A stretch of 27,971 bases of DNA from a virus (IMGVR_UViG_3300042997_000183:64001-91971); one strand, 5' to 3'; counted from the stretch's first letter, positions 3,001 to 27,971 are shown. Numbers and translations are program-made. Notes: a model not told the origin generated them from the letters alone.

Positions 3001-4448
3001 ATGCAACTATTGCTTTTGCTTACAACTTTAATTCTGCTGGTGAGAAGTTAACTAAGTCATCTGTATTAGAACAAAATAAGAAATATATACCTTTAGCTGT
3101 TCCTACAAAGACAGAAACTTCTGATATTAATAAAGCTAATATAACATCTCAAGTTAATGTGATAGTGGACCAATTGAATTCAGTGAACGCTAAAACATTA
3201 AACATAGCAGGAAATGGTATATACACTATGAGAGAAGCTGGATGGAATCAAGAAGAAGTAGATTTAATGACTTATAGAATATTAAAAGGTGTTGTAGAAT
3301 CTCCTAATCTTAAGAACAAAATAGAATCAATTAGAACTGGTGGACAAACAGGATTTGATGAAGCTGGAGCTAAAGCTGGAATTAAATTAGGAATACCTAC
3401 TACTATACTAGCTCCTAAAGGTTGGAAATTTAGAAACATATCTGGTCAAGATATTTCTAATGAACAACAGTTTAAAGCTAGGTTTGGTCAAGTTAATGAA
3501 ACTCAATCAACTAAACCTCAACCAGTTATAGATAGCTCTAAGAAGATTAACATCTATGCAGGTACAGGAGAGAATGCTGAGTTAAGTAACTTTGCTAATA
3601 GACCTTTTACAACAGCAGATGGTGTAGGCTTTGAAAATGTTGAAGGAGCATTTCAAGCAGCTAAACTACTATATAGCTCAGTTTATAATTCTCCTGAATT
3701 TGGTCTTACTCCTAGTTTTTATGATATGTTACTTAAGTTTCAAGAATACTCAGGAGCTAATGCAAAAGAATTAGGAGGAAAAATTAAAGGATTAAATACA
3801 AAAGCATGGGATGCAAACTCTTCAAGAATAATGAAGGAATTAATGAAAGCTTCTTTTGAACAAAATCCATCAGCTCTTAAAGCTTTGTTAGCTACAGGAA
3901 ATGCTGAACTTACCCATACACAAGAGTCTCCTAAATCTAAATGGAGAACAGAGTTTCCTAAACTGTTAATGGAAGTAAGAGAAGAATTAAAACCTAAACC
4001 AGGTTTAAGTGCGTATGTAACTTTAGAGCAATTAGAAGCTGATAAGTCTTTCTTGAATACAGCTATAGAGTTTGTTGATGAAATCTCTACAAACAAAGAT
4101 GTTCCTGTAGCAATGAGAAACTTAAACAAAGGAGAGAAGATCCAAATGGTTAAAGACCTAATGCAGAAAAAGTTTGACGATAAAGCTTGGACCAGTCCTG
4201 TTACACAGGCAGACGGTAGTAAAGCTACAGCACTTCCTGCAGAACAGTTCAAATCATTTAACGAGTTCTTAACGTTTGCTTTGTTACATGAGAAAGCACA
4301 CGAGACTATATCAAAAGTTTCTGGCGAAACAATTGGTCAGTACGAAGATAGAATCAATGCTGCAGCGTTAAACAATATGCCTAAACCTCCTGCTGAATTT
4401 GAAGGCGATTTAGAAGGAGCTGATAACCCTAATCCTTGTGGACAATAA
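3..4448 (+). CDS. Giant virion protein, 5'-partial; probable virion (injected) two-barrel DNA-dependent RNA polymerase C-terminal half, fused to ASCH, SLOG, NADAR and zincin-like modules
   Basis: The frame is open from base 3 (DASDPENLVDRYSGILDAM...), so the gene starts left of the window. Motifs VGIAAVNITNH and SGYATAFVDVAKDP resemble the LG.I.N.H and S.AVD.PKTG motifs that follow the catalytic DxDxD in QDE-1/RDR-like polymerases and crAss-like virion RNAPs. The catalytic motif itself is not in the window. C-terminal motifs: IKAGTKTATIR (ASCH); GGQTGFDEAG and LNIAG (SLOG); LSNF...VEGAFQAAK...FEQNP...LLATG...LMEVR (NADAR); LLHEKAHE. Confidence 0.7.
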   Translation, partial: DASDPENLVDRYSGILDAMISELGDVNTTEGLEERLAAELDKLSDATLQAELKDKYVRDMYKKSLENEYYDSLTKLLTLPENFERLISPIGDAGLKDLASKLDKLRGYDESTIKNRMLDRNYLTKLRHAFVTAKRWVGIAAVNITNHSLTQKISAYIDPSKFELVNEVDRKILGDGKVALPHNTVNINGEERISLSSILDKAGKYISGKLSGYATAFVDVAKDPYILKIIGSDLAVGTFMYLERIGVPIETTAMFMNQPIIKEYLTYLDNTGARGLFNQKNIDAVKSKFVTTGTLINSAGVSVDTLEDNISEYYSKGELSEPKNAEQHVILNEFLKYAKMAEYLFNFGQAINYDTTKFRSGDALFKKETRTEVAEDINIISSVNELLDASFIGKQAELIASSMEAMGEIFKLEKDEFRVITNSILKSFAKDQYLSADDYDRIANKLKASFLDYIIQTKSGLNSEIKALLVDAGTSVASQLAEAKRKNPGLTILNDLQVVSSDRVDGAKSIKLLANNKDAYDENLYTGYMRELRDNPSTTELYNNIVKLSILQGTYQTGISIKNIIPIEDYSKIIAPVIAPLVSNDSLKSFAQGAFQRNNWKDDKIFGKVKPKFFLAQETPIAVDIYDNDIYQYFSPAFPNIKNLGIKSTDRKILLLSERYNAASLKYDFVKVPRVVEDSFTGTRVNMTNGENVTNSMFAIKKSKGDLSLKDIYGYQKVKYADGSPVIVYDDKGVGSHVYKLINLYGDGQLASEYYENNIPSVLNNGTVKIANEITDEEIIAHYGGQTQPKVVPLQSMDKTIQMQPANIEKIKAGTKTATIRSQKQADEIGIPVGQTQVRKIGDTYYNITNRGLLTIEEAGGKEKMLKDDGAKSENDLMYQQTKDWVNGKGRLYVYDIAPVTTETQPVIDNSTLNDGDVVYDKNGTKFIFRGIREEGKVGARSPRLEETDGSKNIVIPGENVKLYTQSTKTQSTKTQSAIEFQEEPTSGYKNRTIKNASADATIAFAYNFNSAGEKLTKSSVLEQNKKYIPLAVPTKTETSDINKANITSQVNVIVDQLNSVNAKTLNIAGNGIYTMREAGWNQEEVDLMTYRILKGVVESPNLKNKIESIRTGGQTGFDEAGAKAGIKLGIPTTILAPKGWKFRNISGQDISNEQQFKARFGQVNETQSTKPQPVIDSSKKINIYAGTGENAELSNFANRPFTTADGVGFENVEGAFQAAKLLYSSVYNSPEFGLTPSFYDMLLKFQEYSGANAKELGGKIKGLNTKAWDANSSRIMKELMKASFEQNPSALKALLATGNAELTHTQESPKSKWRTEFPKLLMEVREELKPKPGLSAYVTLEQLEADKSFLNTAIEFVDEISTNKDVPVAMRNLNKGEKIQMVKDLMQKKFDDKAWTSPVTQADGSKATALPAEQFKSFNEFLTFALLHEKAHETISKVSGETIGQYEDRINAAALNNMPKPPAEFEGDLEGADNPNPCGQ
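2713..3534 (+). repeat. Dispersed 18-bp direct repeat CTCAACCAGTTATAGATA (QPVID linker), two copies
   Basis: Identical at 2713-2730 and 3517-3534; a related linker, CAAACTCAACCTAAAGTT, lies at 2358-2375. Confidence 0.92.
2895..2933 (+). repeat. 15-bp tandem repeat ACTCAATCAACTAAA x2.6 encoding a TQSTK inter-domain linker
   Basis: Exact copies at 2895-2909 and 2910-2924, a partial copy at 2925-2933, and another exact copy at 3501-3515. Confidence 0.95.
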
Positions 4449-4462
4449 ATAACTGATAAACA

Positions 4463-7400
4463 ATGAGTTGTAAAGTAAAGTATATAGAGAACAATTATAG
4501 AGCTGACCATCCTATATTGGCTGATCGATTAACAGACATCTATCACTCAGTATGGAAAAGCATTACCAAGTCTAACATTTTTAGGAAGTATGGTGAAGGT
4601 AATACAGCAACATATTTATTCTCTCCTGCAGGAACTGGTCAGAACAAAAAACAGTTAGAGCTTATCAATAAGATAAACAAGGAGTTTAATGTTCCTGAAG
4701 GAAAGTCTTTGGTTAGATCTAAACTTACAGTGGCAGGTAACAACTCTAAGGTGGAAGTTGATGTAAATCCACTTGCTCAACAAGAATGGGAAAAGATTGC
4801 TGTACAGGGAACATTGTTTCAAAAGCCTACAGACACAGTGAGTTCTAAAGCTTCTCCTAAAACCATTGCTATGGTTAAGGACTTCTTAACTCGTATAGGA
4901 GTTGATGTTAAGCAAATGGACAAGGTTGTTGTGAATGGTGTTAAGGTGGATGCTAATGGTGCTGCCTTGATTACACAAAAATTAGTACAAGTTGTTGAGG
5001 GTAAGGAAGAGGTGGCTCTTACAGAAGAAGCTATGCACTTTGCTGTTGAAATAATCCAGCAATTAGATCCTAAATTATTCAACAAACTATTGAAAGAAAT
5101 CAACAGTTATAACATATTAAATGATGTGTTTCGTGAATATGGATCTGATCCAAACTACCAAACTGCTGATGGTAAGCCTGATATATTGAAGCTTAAAAAA
5201 GAAGCTATTGCTAAGGTGCTTACAGAGACAGTTATTAATAAGAACGAAGGTTTAACAGAAAAGCCTGAGTTAATAGCCAAGGCTGAGAGCTGGTGGCAAA
5301 CAATTGTAAACGCTCTTAAATCTTTATTCCAAAAGTCTGGATTTGACCAAGCTGCAATGCAAGTGTTATCTGGAGAGTTTGTTGGAACAGTTGATGAGCT
5401 TAGAGATTCTGAAAATGATGTTTATCTACAAAAGGATAAACAACAACAGATATACGATTCTATCATGGATCTTAAAGCTAAGGTTGTTAAGAAGGATGAT
5501 GGATACTATGTAGATGGAGTGAAAGTTCTTAGAAGGGTTACTGACTTAGTTAGTGATTGGTACGATAGAAGATTTAAAGCTAATGACTTAACTAAGAGTG
5601 AGTTTGCTAAAGCAGTGGATGATTTAAAAGCTGAGAAAGGTACAGCAGGACATAAAGATATTGAACATGCATTTGAGGTGTTTGTAGATGCTGACGGTTT
5701 CCTAAGAACAGAACCCCTTAATGATGATGGATATGTTTCCAAACTAGATCCTAATGATAGGACTATGTATGAGATGTTAAAGGTAAATCTAAAGGAACGT
5801 TTAAATTCATTCCCTAAAGAAAATGGTGGTACAAGATTTATGTCTGAGGCAATTGTATATGATCCTAAGCGTGACTTAGCTGGTACTATTGACTTCTTAG
5901 CTATTGAACCTGATGGTAAGACAAACATCCTTGACTGGAAGTTTATGGATCTTAACGTAGATAAGTATGATGACATTCCTTGGTATAAGGTGAATGCTTG
6001 GAGATTACAGATGGAGCAATACAAAGCTATCCTTCAAAATACATATAATATTAATCCTCAAGACTTTAAGCAAACAAGAATGATTCCTATTAAAGCATTC
6101 TACTCTCAAGGTAATGCTAAAACTGGAGACCTTCCTAAGCTTCAGTCAATTAAGATAGGTGATGTTAGTGTTAAAGCTATTCAAGATGACTATCTAATCC
6201 CTGTAGGTCTTGAAGGAGAGAAGACAGGTAATAAAAAGATTGATGCTCTCATTGAGAAACTTAATGCTGTATACAAACAGATTTCTGAAAAGAAAGCACT
6301 ACCTTCTGAGAAGCTATCTAAAGCTGAGCAGTTGAATGCTCTCTTTACAGCAATCAGACAGTTACAAATGAAAGGTAATGTTAAACCTCTATTGTATCAG
6401 GCTAAGGTGCTGAACAAGCAAATCAAAACTACAATTGATAATTACAATGCTAACTGGGCTGGTAAAGATCCTAAATCTTTTAGTGAGGAAGAAATGAATA
6501 CCTTTCAAGAAGAGATTGAAACATCACAAGATGCTCTTGACATGTATACAAAGTTAGACTCTGAACTTAGATTCTTATTCCTTGGAGATTTATCAGAAGA
6601 AGATAAGAAACTTAAAGAAGAACTTAGAGATACAGCAGATGATGCTAGAGATTTACAAAGTGATTTAAACACTGTAGCAGAAGAGTTTGCAGATACAATT
6701 ATTGCAGGTAGCGTTGATGTAGATAACTTATTGTCTCCTGAAAAGATTATCAAGGGTATTACTAGATTCTTTTCTTCTACCACTACATTACAGTTGAAGG
6801 GAGTGGAGGTGTTGTTTAAGAAGGCAAACAAAGCTTTTGGTTTATCTTCTATGGACACTCTTACAGAGACCAAAAGATTACAAAATTTAAAAGAAGAATA
6901 CGATAAACTAGCTGCTTCTAAAGGACTTACAATAAAGAACTACTTTGATTTAATTAAGAAGAAAGATAGTAATGAGCTTATAGATGAGTTTAATCCTGAA
7001 TTCTATAAGGAACTAAGAACTAGAATCAACGATAGAGACTATGCTTGGATTAGAGAAAATGTTGATGCTCAAGAGTTTAAAAAGTTCTTAGATGAGAAGC
7101 TAGAAGAAGAGTATAAAAGAATTGATGATAAACCTAGAGTAGGCACAGATGAAGAAATCAACTCTGCAATTGTAAGAGAGAAGAATGATGCTAAGAGAAA
7201 ATATGATGCAAGTACTTCAGAATCAATTGGGTGGTTGCAATATGAACTAGTTAGAAAGTTCCCTGATAGATCTAAGTGGGAATCTAATGAATGGAAAGAA
7301 TTACACAAACCTGATAACAAAGCTGCTCTTGACTTCTATAATTATATTATAGAGAAGAACAATGAATACAAAGAGATTGGCTACATTAATAAAGCTGAAG

Positions 7401-17587: not shown

Positions 17588-18463
17588 ATGAACATCATTT
17601 TCCAGATTAATGGAGGTATTGGTAAATGCATCCTTGCTACATCTATTTGTGAGGTGTTACATAACCAATATCCTGATGATCAACTGATTGTAGTTAGTGG
17701 TTTTCCTGAGGTGTTTATGAACAATCCTTATGTTCATAGATCATTTGCCTTTGGTCAAACCGCTTATTTCTATCAGGATTATATAGAGAATAAGGACTTC
17801 ATTGTGCTTGCACATGATCCTTATGTAGATACAAACTATGTTAGACAGGATGAACATCTTAGCTATACATGGACTAGAATATTTGGTTTACCTGTTCCTG
17901 ATAGTGTAAACCCACAAATATACTTAACAGATAGAGAGCGTCAGTTCTTTAGTGCTAAGTTTGCATCTGACAAACCTATTTTGTTATTACAGACAAATGG
18001 TGGTGGACCTCAGCAAGAACAGAAATACTCATGGGCTAGAGACATTCCAGCTAATATTGTATCAAGTGTTATAGAGGAGTTTGTAAAAGACTACAATGTT
18101 GTCCATGTAAGAAGAGAAGATCAAACAGCTTTTGCTGGGACAATACCTATAACAGATAACTTTAGAGCTTTGGCTGTATTAATAGAGCTAAGCGAAAAGA
18201 GATTACTAATGGACAGCTTTGTACAACACGCAGCAGCTGGACTCAATAAACCTTCTACAGTGTTATGGATAGCTAACACTCCTACAGTGTTTGGTTATGA
18301 TATACATGATAACATCCTAGCTAATCCACACACAAAGAAACCAGAACTTCGTAGTGCATACTTCCAGAAGTTTGACATAGTAGGAAACCTATTAGAGTTT
18401 CCTTACAACAGTGAAGATGAAATCTTTAACGTTGACAAGATAATTGCTTCTCTGAAAGCATAG
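17588..18463 (+). CDS. GT-B fold glycosyltransferase, GT9 (heptosyltransferase)-like
   Basis: N-terminal GGIGKCILATSICEVLHNQYP...NNPYV; middle KPILLLQTNGG...WARD; C-terminal LAVLIELSEKRLLMDSFVQHAAAGLNKPSTVLW...FGY. These follow the GT9 pattern (D/S.P.HLA.AL..P). Confidence 0.8.
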   Translation: MNIIFQINGGIGKCILATSICEVLHNQYPDDQLIVVSGFPEVFMNNPYVHRSFAFGQTAYFYQDYIENKDFIVLAHDPYVDTNYVRQDEHLSYTWTRIFGLPVPDSVNPQIYLTDRERQFFSAKFASDKPILLLQTNGGGPQQEQKYSWARDIPANIVSSVIEEFVKDYNVVHVRREDQTAFAGTIPITDNFRALAVLIELSEKRLLMDSFVQHAAAGLNKPSTVLWIANTPTVFGYDIHDNILANPHTKKPELRSAYFQKFDIVGNLLEFPYNSEDEIFNVDKIIASLKA

Positions 18464-21479: not shown

Positions 21480-21608
21480 ATGGCAAAGGCTAAAGGAGGA
21501 TCATCCTCACAAAAACTCACATTTGGAAAACGTAAAGGCGGTAAAGCTTCAAAATCCAAAGGTCCAAAAGACAAACCAGTAAAGAAATATAAAGGTCAAG
21601 GTAAGTAG
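21480..21608 (+). CDS. Lys/Gly-rich basic microprotein (42 aa), not in the ORF track
   Basis: Manual translation: MAKAKGGSSSQKLTFGKRKGGKASKSKGPKDKPVKKYKGQGK*. It fills the gap after 21469, has an A-rich start context, and ends in a KxYxGQGK motif seen in small phage proteins. Confidence 0.8.
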   Translation: MAKAKGGSSSQKLTFGKRKGGKASKSKGPKDKPVKKYKGQGK

Positions 21609-21641
21609 TATTACTACCAACATATAGATATTTCTAAACTC

Positions 21642-21680
21642 TAATCAATTTAGTTAGAAATCAATTAATCAATTTAGTTA
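21642..21680. repeat. 15-bp direct repeat TAATCAATTTAGTTA x2 upstream of a promoter
   Basis: Exact copies at 21642-21656 and 21666-21680, with a third AATCAAT core at 21659-21665. Confidence 0.85.
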
Positions 21681-21699
21681 TTGTAAATTATTGATGCTC

Positions 21700-21730
21700 A
21701 TTGGTTATAGTAAAAAACAACATATCTTTG
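21700..21730 (+). promoter_or_regulatory. Bacteroidota-type promoter for the collagen / Thr-stalk / glycosyltransferase block
   Basis: TTG at 21701-21703, a 19-bp spacer, TATCTTTG at 21723-21730; 19 bp before the ATG at 21750. Confidence 0.78.
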
Positions 21731-21749
21731 AATATTAATTTTCACAATC

Positions 21750-22691
21750 ATGGCAATACCAAGTAGACAGATAGGCTGGGGCACAGAAGAGAATCTTTTG
21801 TGGCAGATTTCTAAACAATTAGAAGCTCTTACAGGAGTGACATATAATAGTGGAGGTGGTGGTATTGTAGGTCCTCAAGGACCTATTGGTCCTCAGGGTC
21901 CACAAGGAATACAAGGAATACAAGGTGTGCAAGGTGAAACTGGAGCTCAAGGAAGTGCAGGTAATTCTGTAACTCTTCTTGGATCTTATGCTGATCTTGC
22001 TGCATTTAATGCAGGAGCAGGAAGTTTACCAGGTGCTAACATTGGTGATGCATGGATTTTATTATCTGATGGATCATTGATGACTTGGAATGGAACTGTA
22101 TGGTTTGATGCTGGTGATATAAAAGGACCTCAAGGTGATCAAGGCATCCAAGGTGATCAAGGTGTTCAAGGAGAGCAAGGTATACAAGGTGTGCAGGGTA
22201 TTCAAGGAATTCAGGGTGCAGCTGGTGGGTTTGGTTATCTAGGATCTTTCTATGACACTACAAATCAAACAGGTGTTGCTAATAGTGTTCTTACAATGGG
22301 TCTTAATAATTCAGATTCTTGGAACAACGGTGTTTCAATTGTTTCTGGTAATAGAATAACTATAGCTAATCCTGGTGTATATAGCATAGCGTTTAGTGCT
22401 CAGATGGTAAAAAATACTGGTAACACTGCTACACACATTCATATTTGGTTAGCACAAAATGGTACATCTATACCAACTAGTGCTTCTCAAATAAGTTTCC
22501 CATCTAATTCTGTATATGTTGTACCAGCATGGAACTTTTTTGTTAAAACAACAGTGGCTAATGAATATGTACAGCTTAAGTGGGAAATAAATAGTAATCA
22601 AGATAATGCAGTAGTAATGACATCAGCTGTAGCTACAGGAAATATCCCTGCTATTCCTGGATTAATTGTAACAGTAAATCAAGTAGGATAA
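21750..22691 (+). CDS. Collagen-like virion fibre/spike with a C1q/BclA-CTD-like C-terminal domain
   Basis: Two Gly-X-Y runs (GPQGPIGPQGPQGIQGIQ..., GPQGDQGIQGDQGVQ...) separated by a short Trp-containing domain. The C-terminus GSFYDTTNQ...RITIANPGVYSIAFSAQ resembles TNF/C1q-like trimerisation heads. Confidence 0.85.
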   Translation: MAIPSRQIGWGTEENLLWQISKQLEALTGVTYNSGGGGIVGPQGPIGPQGPQGIQGIQGVQGETGAQGSAGNSVTLLGSYADLAAFNAGAGSLPGANIGDAWILLSDGSLMTWNGTVWFDAGDIKGPQGDQGIQGDQGVQGEQGIQGVQGIQGIQGAAGGFGYLGSFYDTTNQTGVANSVLTMGLNNSDSWNNGVSIVSGNRITIANPGVYSIAFSAQMVKNTGNTATHIHIWLAQNGTSIPTSASQISFPSNSVYVVPAWNFFVKTTVANEYVQLKWEINSNQDNAVVMTSAVATGNIPAIPGLIVTVNQVG

Positions 22692-22703
22692 AATTTATTA
22701 ATA

Positions 22704-22865
22704 ATGGCAATACCTTCTAGACAAATAGGTTGGAGTACAAAAAGTAACTTGCTTTGGCAGATATCTAAGCAATTAGAGACTCTGACACGTGTTATGTATA
22801 ACAATGGTACAACTACCACTACTACAACTGTTCCTCCTACCACTACTACTACGACTACTGTTTAA
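22704..22865 (+). CDS. 53-aa microprotein, paralogue of the collagen protein N-terminus with a poly-Thr tail; not in the ORF track
   Basis: Manual translation: MAIPSRQIGWSTKSNLLWQISKQLETLTRVMYNNGTTTTTTTVPPTTTTTTTV*. Compare MAIPSRQIGWGTEENLLWQISKQLEALTGVTYN at 21750. Confidence 0.88.
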   Translation: MAIPSRQIGWSTKSNLLWQISKQLETLTRVMYNNGTTTTTTTVPPTTTTTTTV

Positions 22866-22874
22866 TAAAAAGAT

Positions 22875-23738
22875 ATGAGTTTAACTGCTTACATAAGATA
22901 TGATAATAAGGGAAGGATTGTTCCAGGTGGACCAATAGTAACTTCAGTTAAACCTAAGGTGGGTGACTGGGTAGCTATTAGTGACGTTCTTGTTACAACC
23001 ACCCCTCCCAACTATAAACTACGTGCATTTGTTAGATATATAAATAAAATAGGTGGTCAAAATAACAGCAACAAATATGTAGCTGGTAGTTTGATTCTTC
23101 AACATGATGCTCCTCAGGATGGTAATTGGAAAGAGGTTTATTTCATAAAGCCTTGTGAGTCTTGTAACCCAAGCACCACCACCACATCTACAAGTACATC
23201 TACTACAACTTCTACAAGTACAACAACCTCTACAACTAGTACAACAACAACTGCTACACCTACAACAACCACCACCACAACAGATTCTTTTCAACCAATA
23301 AATTTATATAGTAATGGTGTAATATGTGGAGTAGGTACAGATTGGTCAACAAAAACACCAGCTGAAGTAAAATGTGATTGGATTGAAGTATTTAATAGTG
23401 GTAGTCCTAGCTATGGCGGAAGTTCATTCTTATACTATACATCTGCAGGATTTAATGTAGGAACACAAATATATAATACAACTCCTGGAAATCCTCCTGT
23501 TACATTTAGTGGTACTTATATATATGATTTAGGCGGTCCTTATTTAAATGCAAAAGTGTTTACATTAACAACTGGTATTATCTCTGCAATATATAATCTT
23601 GGTGATTTACCTGCATGTTCACCTTATATTTGTCCTACAACAACAACTACAACCACCAGTGCTCCTGGTGATTTTATAACAACAGAGGGTAGTGACCCCA
23701 TCATAACAGAGGGTGGTGATAATTTAATTATAGAATAA
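22875..23738 (+). CDS. Putative virion decoration protein: two N-terminal anchor repeats, a 37-aa Ser/Thr stalk and a Cys-bounded globular domain
   Basis: AYIRYDNKGRIVPGG...KPKVGDW and AFVRY...VAGSLIL...GNWKEV repeats. Ser/Thr tract at 23172-23282. Ends with GDFITTEGSDPIITEGGDNLIIE. Confidence 0.75.
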   Translation: MSLTAYIRYDNKGRIVPGGPIVTSVKPKVGDWVAISDVLVTTTPPNYKLRAFVRYINKIGGQNNSNKYVAGSLILQHDAPQDGNWKEVYFIKPCESCNPSTTTTSTSTSTTTSTSTTTSTTSTTTTATPTTTTTTTDSFQPINLYSNGVICGVGTDWSTKTPAEVKCDWIEVFNSGSPSYGGSSFLYYTSAGFNVGTQIYNTTPGNPPVTFSGTYIYDLGGPYLNAKVFTLTTGIISAIYNLGDLPACSPYICPTTTTTTTSAPGDFITTEGSDPIITEGGDNLIIE

Positions 23739-23748
23739 AAATATAAAA

Positions 23749-24294
23749 ATGGCAAACGTAAAAATTAGTCAACTGACAGCAGGTTCTGCATTAACTGGTG
23801 CAGAAGAAATTCCTGTAGTTCAAGGTAGTTCTACAGTAAAAACAACAGCACAAGATATTGCTGATTTAGCAGGTGGTGTTACAGGTGGTGGTACTACAAA
23901 TACTGTTCCTTTATTCAATGCAAGTACAAATGTTACAAATAGTGTTATTACACAAGTTTCAGGTAACATTCGTATTGGTTCAAACTATGGTCAAACAAAA
24001 AAAGTAAACGTTCAAGGGGACATAGATTTAAGTGGTATTTTATCAAACAATGGTACACAGATTATTAATGTAGGTACTAATTATTTGGCTAATGGAGATG
24101 GAACAGGAAAATTAACAACAAGTGGTGTTTTTGTAGATGATGCAAATTTATTAGTTACTATTGGTGGATCCTTTACTCCATATACATTAACTAACAGTGG
24201 AAATGTTATTTTCAACGGATTACCTACAAGTTCTGCTGGTTTACCAAGTGGTGCGTTATGGAGAAACGGAACTGTTATTAACATTGTACCTTAA
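23749..24294 (+). CDS. Short fibre/structural protein
   Basis: The N-terminal KISQLTAGSALTGAEEIPVVQG..TVKTT and C-terminal LPTSSAGLPSGALWRNG motifs are typical of phage fibre termini. Confidence 0.7.
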   Translation: MANVKISQLTAGSALTGAEEIPVVQGSSTVKTTAQDIADLAGGVTGGGTTNTVPLFNASTNVTNSVITQVSGNIRIGSNYGQTKKVNVQGDIDLSGILSNNGTQIINVGTNYLANGDGTGKLTTSGVFVDDANLLVTIGGSFTPYTLTNSGNVIFNGLPTSSAGLPSGALWRNGTVINIVP

Positions 24295-24335
24295 TTATAT
24301 ATTTATAATTAAATAAAACCAACAAAACTACATAT

Positions 24336-25352
24336 ATGAAGGATCTAAGATTTATCTGTGCTCAACCAGATGATACCTATTACACATGGCAGGTACATTT
24401 ATGGATAGAGAGCTTAAGGAAAATTGGACATTCAGACAAAGCAATTGTGCTTATATTCATTCCTAGTTATAGGGAAAAGAATACCAAATGGCAGCAAGTG
24501 ATAGACCTCTATCCAGAAGCTGAATTTGTGTTCTACAAAGATGAGCACCAGATTAGTAACATGTTAGGAGTTTATATTCCTGTGTTGCGTCCTTATTGTC
24601 TGAGAAGATATTTTGAAGAGAATCCAGGGATGAAAGATAAAGCTGTTATGTATTGTGATTCAGACGTAGTGTTTACAGAGAATCTAAACATAGATGCTTA
24701 TCTGGATGATGATATAAACTATGTATCTGATACAAACAGTTATATCAACGCTTCATATTTTGATAGTAAGATTAGAGATGTAAAGCCTGAAAAGCTTGAG
24801 TTGTACAAAACTAGAGACATTCTAGCTGAAACAGCAGAGTTTACAGGCATAACTAGAGAGATAGCTGAAGCTAATAATTTACATTCAGGAGGAGCTCAAT
24901 ACCTATTAAAGAACATCGACAGTGATTTCTGGGATAAGGTGTTGCAAGATTGTTTGGTAATTAGAACACATTTGCTAAACGTAAATAGAGAATTCTTTGA
25001 GAATGAAGATAAAGGCTTTCAAAGTTGGTGTGCTGATATGTGGGCTGTTCTCTGGGCTATTTGGTATAGGAAACAAGAAGCAAAGATTATTCCTGAAATG
25101 GATTTTGCTTGGTCTTCTGATCCAATTGAGAAAATAAAGAGAATGGGACTCCTACATAATGCAGGAATTGTTGGTGATCAAGCCAATGGGTATCCTGCTT
25201 TCTATAAAGGAAAGTATCACACAGGACAAGATCCTTTCAATGATCCTCATTTACAAGAAGTTATGAATAGTGAGATTAGTCAGAAGTTCTGTACACACTA
25301 TTATACATCACAACTGATGGAATTAAGAGAAAAATACAAATTATTATATTAA
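24336..25352 (+). CDS. GT-A fold glycosyltransferase resembling peptide O-glycosyltransferases of the HPAT/SGT1 (GT95/GT96) type
   Basis: YYTWQVHLWIESL, YIPVLRP, the DxD motif in MYCDSDVVF, GGAQYLLK, WCADMWAVLW and the late His in LLHNAG resemble the WQ / NRP / DxD / W..EMY / H order of HPAT/SGT1-like enzymes. Confidence 0.65.
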   Translation: MKDLRFICAQPDDTYYTWQVHLWIESLRKIGHSDKAIVLIFIPSYREKNTKWQQVIDLYPEAEFVFYKDEHQISNMLGVYIPVLRPYCLRRYFEENPGMKDKAVMYCDSDVVFTENLNIDAYLDDDINYVSDTNSYINASYFDSKIRDVKPEKLELYKTRDILAETAEFTGITREIAEANNLHSGGAQYLLKNIDSDFWDKVLQDCLVIRTHLLNVNREFFENEDKGFQSWCADMWAVLWAIWYRKQEAKIIPEMDFAWSSDPIEKIKRMGLLHNAGIVGDQANGYPAFYKGKYHTGQDPFNDPHLQEVMNSEISQKFCTHYYTSQLMELREKYKLLY

Positions 25353-25366
25353 CAAAAACGATTATT

Positions 25367-25810
25367 ATGAGTAATAAGAGAGACTTAAGAGCCTTTGTTC
25401 GCTTCGATGGAAGCGGAAGAATCGTTGCTGGTAGCTTAATCCTTAGGAAAAATAAACCTAAGGTGGGTAAATGGCATGAAATTCAAGCATACGAATGTTG
25501 TAATTACATTCCTTCATCTACAACAACAACAACCACACAAGGTGGTGGTGGTGTTACACCTACAGCGTGGGTTGGTAGAGTAACTTCAGATTTATTAAGT
25601 GCTTGTGAACAAGGTTTTAATGTATTCTATACAGCAACTTCTGTTATTAACGGAAATATGGTGTATCAAGATGCAGCTCTTACTAATCCGTTCACTCAAG
25701 TTGGATTGTATATTTCTACAGCAGGGTACTATTATCAAATTAATCAATCTAGTTTAGCTATATTAGTAGGACCTTGTCCAACAACAACAACAACCACAAC
25801 TGCACTTTAA
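25367..25810 (+). CDS. Putative virion decoration protein (anchor domain + poly-Thr + small domain + poly-Thr)
   Basis: LRAFVRFDGSGRIVAGSLILRKNKPKVGKWHEI...ECC, then SSTTTTTT and a terminal CPTTTTTTTAL; paralogue of 22875 and 25823. Confidence 0.75.
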   Translation: MSNKRDLRAFVRFDGSGRIVAGSLILRKNKPKVGKWHEIQAYECCNYIPSSTTTTTTQGGGGVTPTAWVGRVTSDLLSACEQGFNVFYTATSVINGNMVYQDAALTNPFTQVGLYISTAGYYYQINQSSLAILVGPCPTTTTTTTAL

Positions 25811-25822
25811 AATTAAATAAAA

Positions 25823-26512
25823 ATGGCAAATCAAAATAAATTAAAAGCGTACGTACGCTATGATGGTACAGGTAGAGTGATAGCTGGTGGTCCAATTCTA
25901 CAAAGATTCAAACCTGCTGTAGGTAATTGGGTGGAAATCAATGCAAACGAGTGTTGTAACGGAACACCTACAACTACCACTACCACTACGCAAGGTGGTG
26001 TTACACCAACTGCACATATTATCAATCTTGGTTATACTGAATTTGGAGCATGTGAAAACCCTTATTCAACAGGAGTTTATTATACTAATTCTAGTGTAAT
26101 TACAACAGGAACAATTATATATTCAGATGCTTCTTTAACTACTGTTGCTTCTTTTAATGCAACTTATATATCTATAAACAATATTTTATACACTGTATCT
26201 AATGCAGTTGTTACATCTAATGGAACACCTTGTGGAAGTACAACAACTACTACAACTACCACTACTATAGCAACTATAAATGTAGGAACAACTTCAGAAT
26301 CTTGTGGAACACCTAGTACTTTTGCAACAGTATCATTTGCTACTGGTAGTAACATATGTGATCTAGTTGTTGAATTACAAGGTGATTTCTCAATGTTCCC
26401 TTCAACATTTTATGTAATCTATGGTGGATTTTCAAGATTATTTAGTAAAATTAGTGATTCAATAATCCAAGGTGCAGGTGGAGCTCCTGGTGAATGTGTT
26501 TCTTGTGGATAA
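25823..26512 (+). CDS. Putative virion decoration protein (anchor domain + two poly-Thr-linked Cys-containing domains)
   Basis: LKAYVRYDGTGRVIAGGPILQRFKPAVGNWVEI...ECC, TTTTTTTQGGVTPTA, PCGSTTTTTTTTT. Confidence 0.75.
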   Translation: MANQNKLKAYVRYDGTGRVIAGGPILQRFKPAVGNWVEINANECCNGTPTTTTTTTQGGVTPTAHIINLGYTEFGACENPYSTGVYYTNSSVITTGTIIYSDASLTTVASFNATYISINNILYTVSNAVVTSNGTPCGSTTTTTTTTTIATINVGTTSESCGTPSTFATVSFATGSNICDLVVELQGDFSMFPSTFYVIYGGFSRLFSKISDSIIQGAGGAPGECVSCG

Positions 26513-26530
26513 ATAATATAATTAAAAACT

Positions 26531-26935
26531 ATGGCAAAATCATTATTCCCTGATGAGATGATGAAATCAGGAGAACTAAACTTGGAAACAATAGCTGGGA
26601 AGCTTACATATTTCCATGAGCAACTACATTTAACTCATTGGCAAACAAAGAGTTATGCTGAGCACCAAGCTCTAGGAGGATTGTACGATTATGTACAGGA
26701 TTTCAAAGATGGTGTTATTGAGAAGCTTATGGGCTATACAGGCAAACGTCCTGCTCCATACAAGATAGAACCTCTTACAAATTGTACAGGGGATGAATGT
26801 GTGTCAAAGCTTTTATCTTTTGCATCTTCATTGAAAAGCTATGCTGAATCAAATAGCTATCATGATATTGCTAATTTAGCAGATGCTCTAAGCGGTGAAG
26901 CAGCAAAAACTAAATACTTATTAACCTTGTCTTAA
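26531..26935 (+). CDS. Ferritin/Dps-like four-helix protein (DUF5856-like)
   Basis: QLHLTHWQTKSYAEHQALGGLYD...DGVIEKLMGY resembles the H-W...H..L..LY....D..E ferroxidase pattern of Dps-like phage proteins. Confidence 0.75.
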   Translation: MAKSLFPDEMMKSGELNLETIAGKLTYFHEQLHLTHWQTKSYAEHQALGGLYDYVQDFKDGVIEKLMGYTGKRPAPYKIEPLTNCTGDECVSKLLSFASSLKSYAESNSYHDIANLADALSGEAAKTKYLLTLS

Positions 26936-27216
26936 TGCAAATTAACAAGAAATTCTTTCCTGAGGTGATGCAAGATAACGAACTTGCTTATTTTGCTCAC
27001 CTACAGGGAATTATAGATTCTGTGGACGAGTTAGCCACATTAGAAATCACTAGGAATCCTAATTCCTACCACTTTAGACTAGCACCGTCTATACCTAGGT
27101 ATAATGATATGCTGCTAGAAGAGCTATTGAAGTTTCATAACCTCTTACAGATCCATCTAGATCTGTCTAAAAGTATTAAAAGCTCAGCAACAATAGTATT
27201 TGATATCACATTATAA
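26935..27216 (+). CDS. Hypothetical protein (93 aa)
   Basis: TAATG coupling to the upstream gene; no recognisable motif. Confidence 0.7.
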   Translation: MQINKKFFPEVMQDNELAYFAHLQGIIDSVDELATLEITRNPNSYHFRLAPSIPRYNDMLLEELLKFHNLLQIHLDLSKSIKSSATIVFDITL

Positions 27217-27222
27217 CCAACA

Positions 27223-27971
27223 ATGATACAAACTTACAAAGATTTAAAAGGAAGAACTTGGGATCAACCAGGAATACCTAAATGGATATTCAGAGCAGGT
27301 AATGATTCTCTAGAAGATTTACATCCTGAAATAGCTGAGATATACACTACACAGTTAGAGAATAACCCTGACTATGAATTATTCTACTTCAGTAGAGAAG
27401 ATAGATTACAGTTTATAACAGATCAAAATGATAATGAGTTATTGTATGCTTATAATATAATAGTTCCAGAAGCATTTAAAACAGACATGTTTAGATATGT
27501 TGTTTTAACCACATATGGAGGGGTGTATATGGACTTTAGTATGCAAACTCTTGTACCACTTGCTGATATAATTAAACATTACACTTATGTATATGTTAAA
27601 GATACTGCTGGAGACAATCCCCTTATTCAGAGTTTATATAATGCATTTATAATTACTCCTAAAGACAATGCTTTTTTAAAGGCTGCTTTAAAACAATCTA
27701 TATATAATATCAAACATAGGATATACGGTGTAACATGTTTAACTATAACTAGTCCACACATGTTTGGAGAAGTATACAAAAAATTCCATGGACTAGATGA
27801 TATTGTGCTGGGAGAGAGTGGAGATGGTACAATAGTTTATGATCATCGTCTTCCTAATCAGTTTATTGAAGATGGTGACATTAATCTTGTACAGATAAAA
27901 CATCCTAAACATTATGAAATTCTCTATTCTACTGAAGATAGATATAACATAGTTTGGGATGAGAGAAGAAT
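27223..27971 (+). CDS. GT32 (OCH1/Gly_transf_sug-like) glycosyltransferase, 3'-partial; not in the ORF track
   Basis: Manually translated from the ATG at 27223 with no stop to the window end: IPKWIF...NPDYELFYF...AFKTDMFRYVVLTTYGGVYMDFS...YNAFI...NAFLK...ITSPHMF. This matches the GT32 pattern A.K.D..RY..L...GG.Y.D. Confidence 0.85.
   Translation, partial: MIQTYKDLKGRTWDQPGIPKWIFRAGNDSLEDLHPEIAEIYTTQLENNPDYELFYFSREDRLQFITDQNDNELLYAYNIIVPEAFKTDMFRYVVLTTYGGVYMDFSMQTLVPLADIIKHYTYVYVKDTAGDNPLIQSLYNAFIITPKDNAFLKAALKQSIYNIKHRIYGVTCLTITSPHMFGEVYKKFHGLDDIVLGESGDGTIVYDHRLPNQFIEDGDINLVQIKHPKHYEILYSTEDRYNIVWDERR

Follow-up and report, generated by a model that had tools for sequence, protein, structure and literature searches.

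To our knowledge, only actinobacteriophages have been shown to glycosylate their particles with enzymes of their own, and there the modification alters antibody recognition. The eukaryotic virus PBCV-1 also encodes a cytoplasmic GT-A enzyme, A64R, that builds glycans on a virion protein; these glycans are N-linked, sit at atypical sites on the major capsid protein and involve no poly-threonine (poly-Thr) tags. Virion glycosylation has been described for the mycobacteriophages Che8, Corndog and Myrna (Freeman et al. 2023, Cell Host Microbe 31:1216, cited in PMC12619734 and PMC13313380) and reportedly relies on phage-encoded cytoplasmic glycosyltransferases (GTs), joined by methyltransferases in some genomes, that modify structural proteins of the phage itself. 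Here we analyse a stretch of viral DNA, the window, that comprises the last 27,971 of the 91,971 bases of an IMG/VR contig (IMGVR_UViG_3300042997_000183, positions 64001-91971). The window ends in a block of genes (21750-27971) in which a GT-A enzyme is encoded among proteins with threonine runs, a likeness in gene content to the mycobacteriophage system. We consider it likely that this block of a crAss-like phage is a cassette for the O-glycosylation of proteins in the cytoplasm by phage-encoded enzymes, in which the GT-A enzyme acts on the poly-Thr tags.

The candidate initiating glycosyltransferase

The enzyme gene lies among four genes whose translated products carry threonine runs (T7 denotes seven consecutive threonines) and one of two peptides, anchor A or anchor B:

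22704..22865, plus strand: 53-amino-acid (aa) microprotein, anchor A followed by T7-VPP-T7 (translation); candidate minimal acceptor
22875..23738, plus strand: 287-aa protein with two anchor B-like modules, a 37-aa Ser/Thr tract, a Cys-framed beta domain and a T7 run (translation)
24336..25352, plus strand: 338-aa GT-A glycosyltransferase, predicted to be soluble, phrog_4417 (PHROG profile E 2.3e-54; model pLDDT (predicted local distance difference test) 97.3); candidate initiating peptide O-glycosyltransferase
25367..25810, plus strand: 147-aa protein with anchor B, a Cys pair, a T6 linker (SST6), a small beta domain and a C-terminal T7 (translation)
25823..26512, plus strand: 229-aa protein with anchor B, linkers of T7 and ST9, and two distal domains (translation)

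The enzyme matches PHROG 4417, a phage family without an assigned function, over residues 5-320 (profile positions 2-286 of 293). No family was found in Pfam or NCBIfam, and searches of the PDB by single sequence or by profile gave no match at E <= 0.1. The enzyme family is nevertheless very large: it counts 2,897 close homologues, clustering at 50% leaves 763 representatives, and its longer members are fusions to GT2, GT32 and methyltransferase domains. Four residues are invariant in 57 diverse homologues: D108 and D110, which form a DxD motif, H274 and K291. The AlphaFold model opens with a beta strand (residues 4-11) and is globular over its whole length, and neither the model nor the sequence has an N-terminal hydrophobic helix or membrane anchor. 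Since the globular part already starts at residue 4 and no helix precedes it, the modelled enzyme is predicted to be soluble and should act in the cytoplasm.

When the model was compared with predicted structures of Swiss-Prot proteins, ranks 1-9 were taken by plant and algal SGT1 and HPAT-type proteins (template-modelling (TM) scores of 0.53-0.64), above the GT8 galactinol synthases. The top matches were the Arabidopsis peptidyl-Ser alpha-galactosyltransferase (E 2.6e-11, TM 0.60) and HPAT1-3, RDN and PLENTY (TM 0.57-0.64). An earlier note on this DNA had proposed an HPAT/SGT1-like enzyme here, and the fold search, in which both sides are predicted models, bears this out. Against the PDB, Foldseek returned 205 chains at E <= 0.001; the top matches listed are glycosyltransferases, and the best is the polysaccharide enzyme WbbM. 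Among solved structures, the VIA Z scores were 14.9 for glycogenin, 14.2 for the Skp1 alpha-galactosyltransferase, 14.1 for LgtC, 13.7 for UGGT, 13.1 for GlyE and 11.3 for PBCV-1 A64R. The best of these belong to the retaining GT-A enzymes of GT8 type, and glycogenin, the Skp1 enzyme, UGGT and GlyE have proteins as substrates. As modelled, the protein has the GT-A fold of a glycosyltransferase with a DxD motif, and it is probably a GT8-like enzyme of the retaining type, with a UDP-sugar of the host as donor.

Threonine runs and their association with the enzyme

Threonine runs are a feature of the late genes of this phage. Besides the four products listed above, which agree with the earlier note, three proteins of the structural module carry runs: the muzzle protein (at its C terminus), an Lcl_C-headed protein of 451 aa and a protein of 191 aa. 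No threonine runs occur in the early or replication genes of the contig, and none in the major capsid protein. Over the whole 92-kb contig, a pattern coding for T7 has 24 occurrences on the coding strand and none on the opposite strand, whereas the reversed pattern used as a control has three and none, respectively. The threonine codons within runs are mixed (70 ACT, 80 ACA, 40 ACC and 4 ACG) and, as DNA, the tracts reach a repetitiveness of only 66-89%; the runs therefore appear to be maintained at the level of the protein, as had been proposed from their mixed codons.

The modal length of the runs is seven in the contig, in its relatives and in cultured phages alike. Exactly seven threonines make up 16 of the 29 contig runs of at least five, 228 of the 444 runs of at least four in IMG/VR relatives and 20 of the 50 such runs in cultured phages that carry the GT. 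Cys-Pro is a common flank before a run, and xPP or xTP between runs. In the 287-aa protein, the 37-residue tract is made up of 27 Ser or Thr residues, the residues ATP and a T7, in that order, and a second T7 lies elsewhere. A close relative, the GT of which is 96% identical (L013, 9267-9971), has a single T7 in place of this tract (window 23150-23270); tract length therefore changes quickly between near-identical phages.

A constant length and conserved flanks are also what would be expected of a recognition motif. The enzyme might then modify the tagged proteins with poly-Thr serving as a recognition or docking element or as a spacer, and the sugar would be placed on a neighbouring residue, for instance a Ser at the flank or a position within the adjacent domain, or the modification would be a different one. 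The best fold matches among solved structures, glycogenin and the Skp1 transferase, each modify single defined sites, in keeping with this idea. We nonetheless regard it as quite unlikely: beyond the anchor or domain, the 53-aa microprotein and many of the C-terminal tails are almost entirely threonine, which leaves few other hydroxyl acceptors, and the closest fold matches act, by their Swiss-Prot names, on hydroxyl residues in repetitive peptides.

Directly before a run there is very often a Cys, Cys-Pro or Cys-Gly, and Cys residues also frame the domains that separate the runs (contig 32.2-34.2 kb and 42.2-42.6 kb; window 22.7-26.5 kb). This pattern suggests either disulfide-stapled modules on glycosylated stalks or a Cys within a recognition motif.

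The association of poly-Thr with the GT was followed in 80 IMG/VR loci found by a single-protein search with the window enzyme (GT identity 64-96%), each spanning up to 10 kb on either side of the GT where the contig permitted. Open reading frames (ORFs) with threonine runs are present on the GT strand in 79 of the 80; of 202 such ORFs, 184 lie within 1.5 kb of the GT and only one is on the opposite strand. The usual layout is compact, with a 44-60-aa anchor A microprotein that ends about 30 nucleotides (25-37 in most relatives) before the GT gene and an anchor B protein that begins 6-24 nucleotides after it. Anchor B occurs in all 80 loci and anchor A in 75. The first 48 residues of anchor B proteins are 88-100% conserved and the remainder is variable, a pattern typical of docking modules whose distal parts can be exchanged. 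When the 229-aa anchor B protein was used for a reverse search, only nine loci were found, mostly on contigs already in the set. The model of the 147-aa protein has two small beta domains with a disordered threonine run between them; a BFVD fold search with this protein found only uncharacterised phage proteins, with no indication of a position in the virion.

The pairing extends to distant phages. A tblastn search with the enzyme identified 77 records of cultured phages, mostly phages of Firmicutes, and we inspected nine lineages, first eight and then Enterococcus phage Planchet. The tagged proteins in these phages are mostly major capsid or major tail proteins, and in seven of the eight (all but R3.3) a tagged gene is immediately beside the GT. 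In Enterococcus phage phiFL1A, the GT is located between the major tail protein and the tail chaperones, and poly-Thr tails end both the major head and the major tail proteins; in Enterococcus faecium phage 4995_1, the gene before it encodes a poly-Thr-tailed capsid protein. The GT of Lactococcus phage 1706 follows a tail protein that ends in T10, and a 686-aa 'head maturation protease' of the same phage ends in T9. Lactobacillus phage iLp84 has T7 tags on its capsid protein, its tail protein and a small protein annotated as 'major tail protein', and the tail protein of Staphylococcus phage RQ1 ends in T7. The gene upstream of the GT is Thr-rich in Lactobacillus phage Semele and Chryseobacterium phage MA9V-3. 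In Lacticaseibacillus phage R3.3, the GT is in the head module, and a tail protein that ends in T6 is encoded about 1.4 kb downstream. Planchet has a poly-Thr tract of about 40 aa, in a different frame, directly behind the stop codon of the major capsid gene and ahead of the GT homologue (L104, 7772-8001); this could be a frameshift addition to some capsid subunits, or an unannotated small gene.

The converse was found in phages that lack the enzyme. Streptococcus phages phiGBSVK and Javan505 and Lactobacillus phage Bassarid have homologous capsid and tail proteins without poly-Thr, and no GT in their whole records; a T6 pattern occurs 0, 0 and 1 times in these records, compared with 5 times in phiFL1A and 18 times in iLp84. 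The co-occurrence of the anchor and poly-Thr genes with the HPAT-like gene, which had been suggested as a check, is thus strongly positive both within the lineage and across phyla, and in these genomes tag and enzyme are gained and lost together. The only cultured phage with a detectable homologue of the major head protein of our contig (contig 25517-27070) is Leptolyngbya phage Lbo-JY46, at 26% identity, so there is no close cultured GT-negative crAss-like control; Lbo-JY46 itself has neither the GT nor a T7 pattern in 125 kb.

Three genomes of cultured phages have further peculiarities. In RQ1, an ORF that overlaps the 3' end of the major tail gene contains seven threonine runs (five T7, one T6 and one T8; L105, 7623-7934) and probably extends the tail-tube protein by a frameshift; four T7 runs are also found in the assembly protease of the same phage. 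In phiFL2A and phiFL1C (L093 and L094), tblastn recovers the GT homologue in two pieces in different frames (4157-4870 and 4833-4961), the annotation gives it as fragments or not at all, and the poly-Thr tails are intact; the gene is either truly broken or affected by a sequencing error.

Several points weigh against a glycosylation cassette. The likeness to SGT1 and HPAT enzymes is between predicted structures, at 10-14% identity and without a sequence match at the level of Pfam. The synteny is partly inherited, because the 80 relatives form one lineage. Among 12 distant chromosomal homologues (27-40% identity; L128-L139) from Chitinophaga, Sphingobacterium, Mucilaginibacter and other Bacteroidota, nine have no threonine-run ORF within 5 kb, and therefore the wider GT family is not tied to poly-Thr; the copy in Sphingobacterium detergens seems to have several GT2 genes within about 10 kb, as in a polysaccharide locus (the contig mapping is probable). 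Poly-Thr linkers can serve as plain spacers. A place in the virion is only presumed for the proteins with anchor A or anchor B, the genes of which follow the lysis genes, outside the head and tail module. The contig, moreover, is only about 79% complete. Finally, our literature search found no paper on the enzyme family or on poly-Thr tags in phages, and no report of a glycan, a glycopeptide or an enzyme activity for any member of the family.

Some of these observations would suit an alternative in which the threonine runs are unglycosylated linkers or stalks and the GTs act on lipopolysaccharide, capsule or another envelope glycan, to block superinfection or to aid release. The distant Bacteroidota homologues without nearby threonine-run genes, one of them apparently among GT2 genes, are consistent with such a role, as are WbbM as the best Foldseek match in the PDB, the resemblance of the fused family members to multi-domain polysaccharide synthases and the position of the cassette directly after the lysis genes. 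However, this alternative leaves unexplained why homologous capsid and tail proteins have poly-Thr tails only when the GT is present, why the GT is directly behind a tagged gene in seven of eight cultured phages with an alternate-frame tract in the ninth, and why run lengths peak sharply at seven; the enzyme model also has no membrane anchor. We therefore judge it unlikely and favour glycosylation of the tagged proteins themselves.

Candidate extenders and genomic setting

The remaining features of interest, most of them in the same block, are as follows:

17588..18463, plus strand: 291-aa protein, weak lead to a GT9-like (GT-B) enzyme (phrog_8954, E 7.8e-09)
21723..21730, plus strand: Bacteroidota-type -7 promoter-like motif TAnnTTTG (TATCTTTG), motif match, 20 nucleotides before the ATG at 21750
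21750..22691, plus strand: 313-aa collagen-like fibre protein with N-terminal anchor A and a BclA_C/C1q-like head (Pfam Collagen E 3.8e-10; many tail-fibre PHROGs)
23749..24294, plus strand: 181-aa accessory protein without a threonine run, a variable cassette member (no family match; in 2 of 80 relatives)
26531..26935, plus strand: DUF5856 protein, similar to a PHROG 'starvation-inducible regulator', a conserved neighbour (Pfam E 1.4e-14; in 77 of 80 relatives)
26935..27216, plus strand: 93-aa conserved neighbour (in 72 of 80 relatives)
27223..27971, plus strand: first 249 aa of a 764-aa triple GT32-type protein, cut by the contig end (Gly_transf_sug, PF04488, E 1.3e-11)

All genes listed in the earlier note were recovered in place on the plus strand, including the collagen spike, which matches Pfam Collagen at 21750-22691 (its BclA_C-like C-terminal region is a weak match), and the GT32 gene that follows the stalk genes, which scores above the Gly_transf_sug cut-off of 23 bits both in the window fragment (45.4 bits) and as the full protein (98 bits). 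The full 764-aa product, encoded on an identical contig (L006:11857-14151), matches Gly_transf_sug in three stretches (E 5.3e-28), and its three tandem GT32-type domains are mutually 41% and 33% identical. The canonical DXD is absent from the protein; all three domains have GG-x-Y/F-x-D-F-S, with Ser in place of the second Asp, and since all three share DFS, a variant motif seems more likely than decay. This gene is found in only 4 of the 80 relatives. It was accordingly rejected as an obligatory partner of the GT-A enzyme, and a fixed part in elongation, the step for which the earlier note had named it, is not supported; it is better regarded as a candidate for an optional glycan extender.

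Other relatives encode other candidates. In a survey of 53 relative loci, within 10 kb, we found GT2 in 35, a methyltransferase in 14, a Fringe/GT31-like protein in 7, GT11 in 6 and the triple GT32 protein in 3; at least one further GT is present in 45 of the 53, in at least five combinations. These extra transferase genes are downstream of the cassette, mostly on the convergent strand, and adjoin RecA and dUTPase genes. In the window, the 291-aa product of 17588-18463 has no match in Pfam; one of the clusters near it in a language-model atlas has Glyco_transf_9 in 45% of its members.

Genes for a large terminase, a portal and a major head protein are present on the contig. It also encodes two ring proteins (CrAss_Ring_1, E 1.4e-10; CrAss_Ring_2, E 2e-17), a homologue of the crAss_MUZ muzzle (E 4.7e-29) and an ORF of 5,004 aa, and on these grounds its source is, from its genes, a crAss-like phage, of a lineage that appears to have no close cultured relative. 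All 15 matches to the central enzyme in genome collections are in Bacteroidota records, including a 112-kb contig binned with a metagenome-assembled genome of Sediminibacterium, and a Bacteroidota host is likely. At the DNA level, similarity of the block to cultured phages is confined to the collagen repeats.

Phage GTs that glycosylate DNA are well documented, and the contig is incomplete (an estimated 79%). The GTs might then hypermodify phage DNA, adding sugar to hydroxymethyl-pyrimidines as a defence against restriction, with the threonine-run genes unrelated. We consider this highly improbable: thymidylate-synthase/hydroxymethylase families were found neither in the contig nor in four near-complete relatives, no DNA-modification families were present among 23 further proteins scanned, and the GT belongs to a late same-strand block and co-varies with the threonine tags.

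The window opens with the C terminus of a giant protein, a 1,647-aa protein and a tail fibre of 2,208 aa that carries an S74 chaperone domain; next come small genes, then genes for a GH19 endolysin and spanin-like proteins, and then a gap of about 140 nucleotides, the only sizeable intergenic gap, immediately upstream of 21750. From there the block is tightly packed on the plus strand, with gaps of at most 41 nucleotides after the first gene. This layout fits transcription of the block as one unit from the TAnnTTTG motif, which occurs 45 times in the window against 35 expected. A sigma-70 promoter scan, which is unsuited to this phage and uninformative, found fewer sites than in shuffled sequence. 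The AT-rich gap contains, upstream of the motif (21640-21690), a direct repeat of about 14 nucleotides (aatcaatttagtta; two copies about 26 nucleotides apart) that could be a regulator site. Just upstream of the gap (21480-21608, plus strand) is a 42-aa, highly basic, Lys/Gly-rich ORF that is also called as a gene on the identical contig (L006:6114-6242).

Proposed mechanism and comparison with known systems

We propose that the GT-A enzyme (24336-25352) would add the first sugar to threonines of short poly-Thr tags, typically seven residues long. Its targets from the same late operon would be the anchor A microprotein and the three anchor B proteins, and the threonine-run proteins of the structural module (the muzzle C terminus, the Lcl_C-headed protein and the 191-aa protein) would probably be targets as well. 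The anchors may serve for N-terminal docking, with swappable distal domains and with the threonine runs as disordered stalks. The glycan would then be extended by transferases that vary between relatives: the triple GT32 protein here, and GT2, GT11 or GT31/Fringe-like enzymes and a methyltransferase elsewhere. The benefit might be shielding, solubility, protease resistance or adhesion. The anchor-domain proteins presumably belong to the virion; we infer this location, as well as threonine as the acceptor, the identity of the sugar, the timing and the benefit.

The earlier note had read the block as a system for virion O-glycosylation that forms a coat on the capsid. The GT-A fold, the co-occurrence, the protein-level threonine runs and the cytoplasmic enzyme favour the first part of that reading; the capsid coat and a fixed role of GT32 are not supported. 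The capsid protein of this phage has no threonine run, and a capsid coat is therefore not suggested by the genome; the tags are on fibre-type and anchor proteins, the Lcl_C-headed protein and the muzzle.

A broader proposal, which we offer tentatively, is that T7 tag and initiating transferase form a portable code across phages of Bacteroidota and Firmicutes, by which one conserved GT-A family would O-glycosylate, in the cytoplasm, whatever protein bears about seven threonines in a row, that the fast-changing extender island (GT2, GT11, GT31, GT32 and methyltransferase) gives rise to serotype-like sugar coats, and that crAss-like phages place the tags on plug-in fibre proteins with two docking peptides, among them the 53-aa protein that has only an anchor and the tag. 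If glycosylation of the tags is confirmed, sugar-coated virions would be common, both in abundant environmental crAss-like phages and in phages of Enterococcus, Lactobacillus, Lactococcus and Staphylococcus, with relevance to phage therapy and to the phages of dairy fermentation. It would bear on phage immunogenicity and clearance, on adhesion to mucus or host glycans and on particle stability, as well as on how unexplained density or mass shifts in virion studies are read. Bacterial glycoengineering would also gain a cytoplasmic O-glycosylation tag that is very small and can be genetically encoded.

The enzymes closest in fold are SGT1/SERGT1 (GT96) and HPAT1-3, RDN and PLENTY (GT95), which match nearly the whole 338 aa at E values of 2.6e-11 to 1e-7 and, by their Swiss-Prot names, start O-glycans on hydroxyl residues of repetitive peptides. 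These enzymes are type II membrane proteins of the secretory pathway, whereas the phage enzyme is predicted to be soluble, without an anchor; their acceptor is Ser or Hyp, whereas here it is presumed to be Thr. The GT8-type enzymes that act on proteins (glycogenin, AgtA and GlyE, the last from the pneumococcal serine-rich-repeat protein pathway) align over 211-234 residues with Z scores of 13.1-14.9 and share the DxD and the downstream His and Lys. They differ in that the phage enzyme has no GT8 match in Pfam and has extra helical insertions, with a root-mean-square deviation of 3.5-3.9 Å.

The mycobacteriophage system is similar in its overall plan, but no Mycobacterium phage is among the 77 tblastn records of this GT, and the capsid and tail-tube proteins of Che8 end in TGS and DGS, with no poly-Thr. 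The acceptors there are the C termini of capsid and tail-tube proteins, whereas here they would be accessory fibre-type proteins and the muzzle; tags at the C termini of capsid and tail proteins are met in the Firmicutes phages with the same GT. Compared with mycobacteriophage virion glycosylation, the cassette described here thus appears, from its genes, to combine a different enzyme family with a different acceptor and, in this phage, with different carriers.

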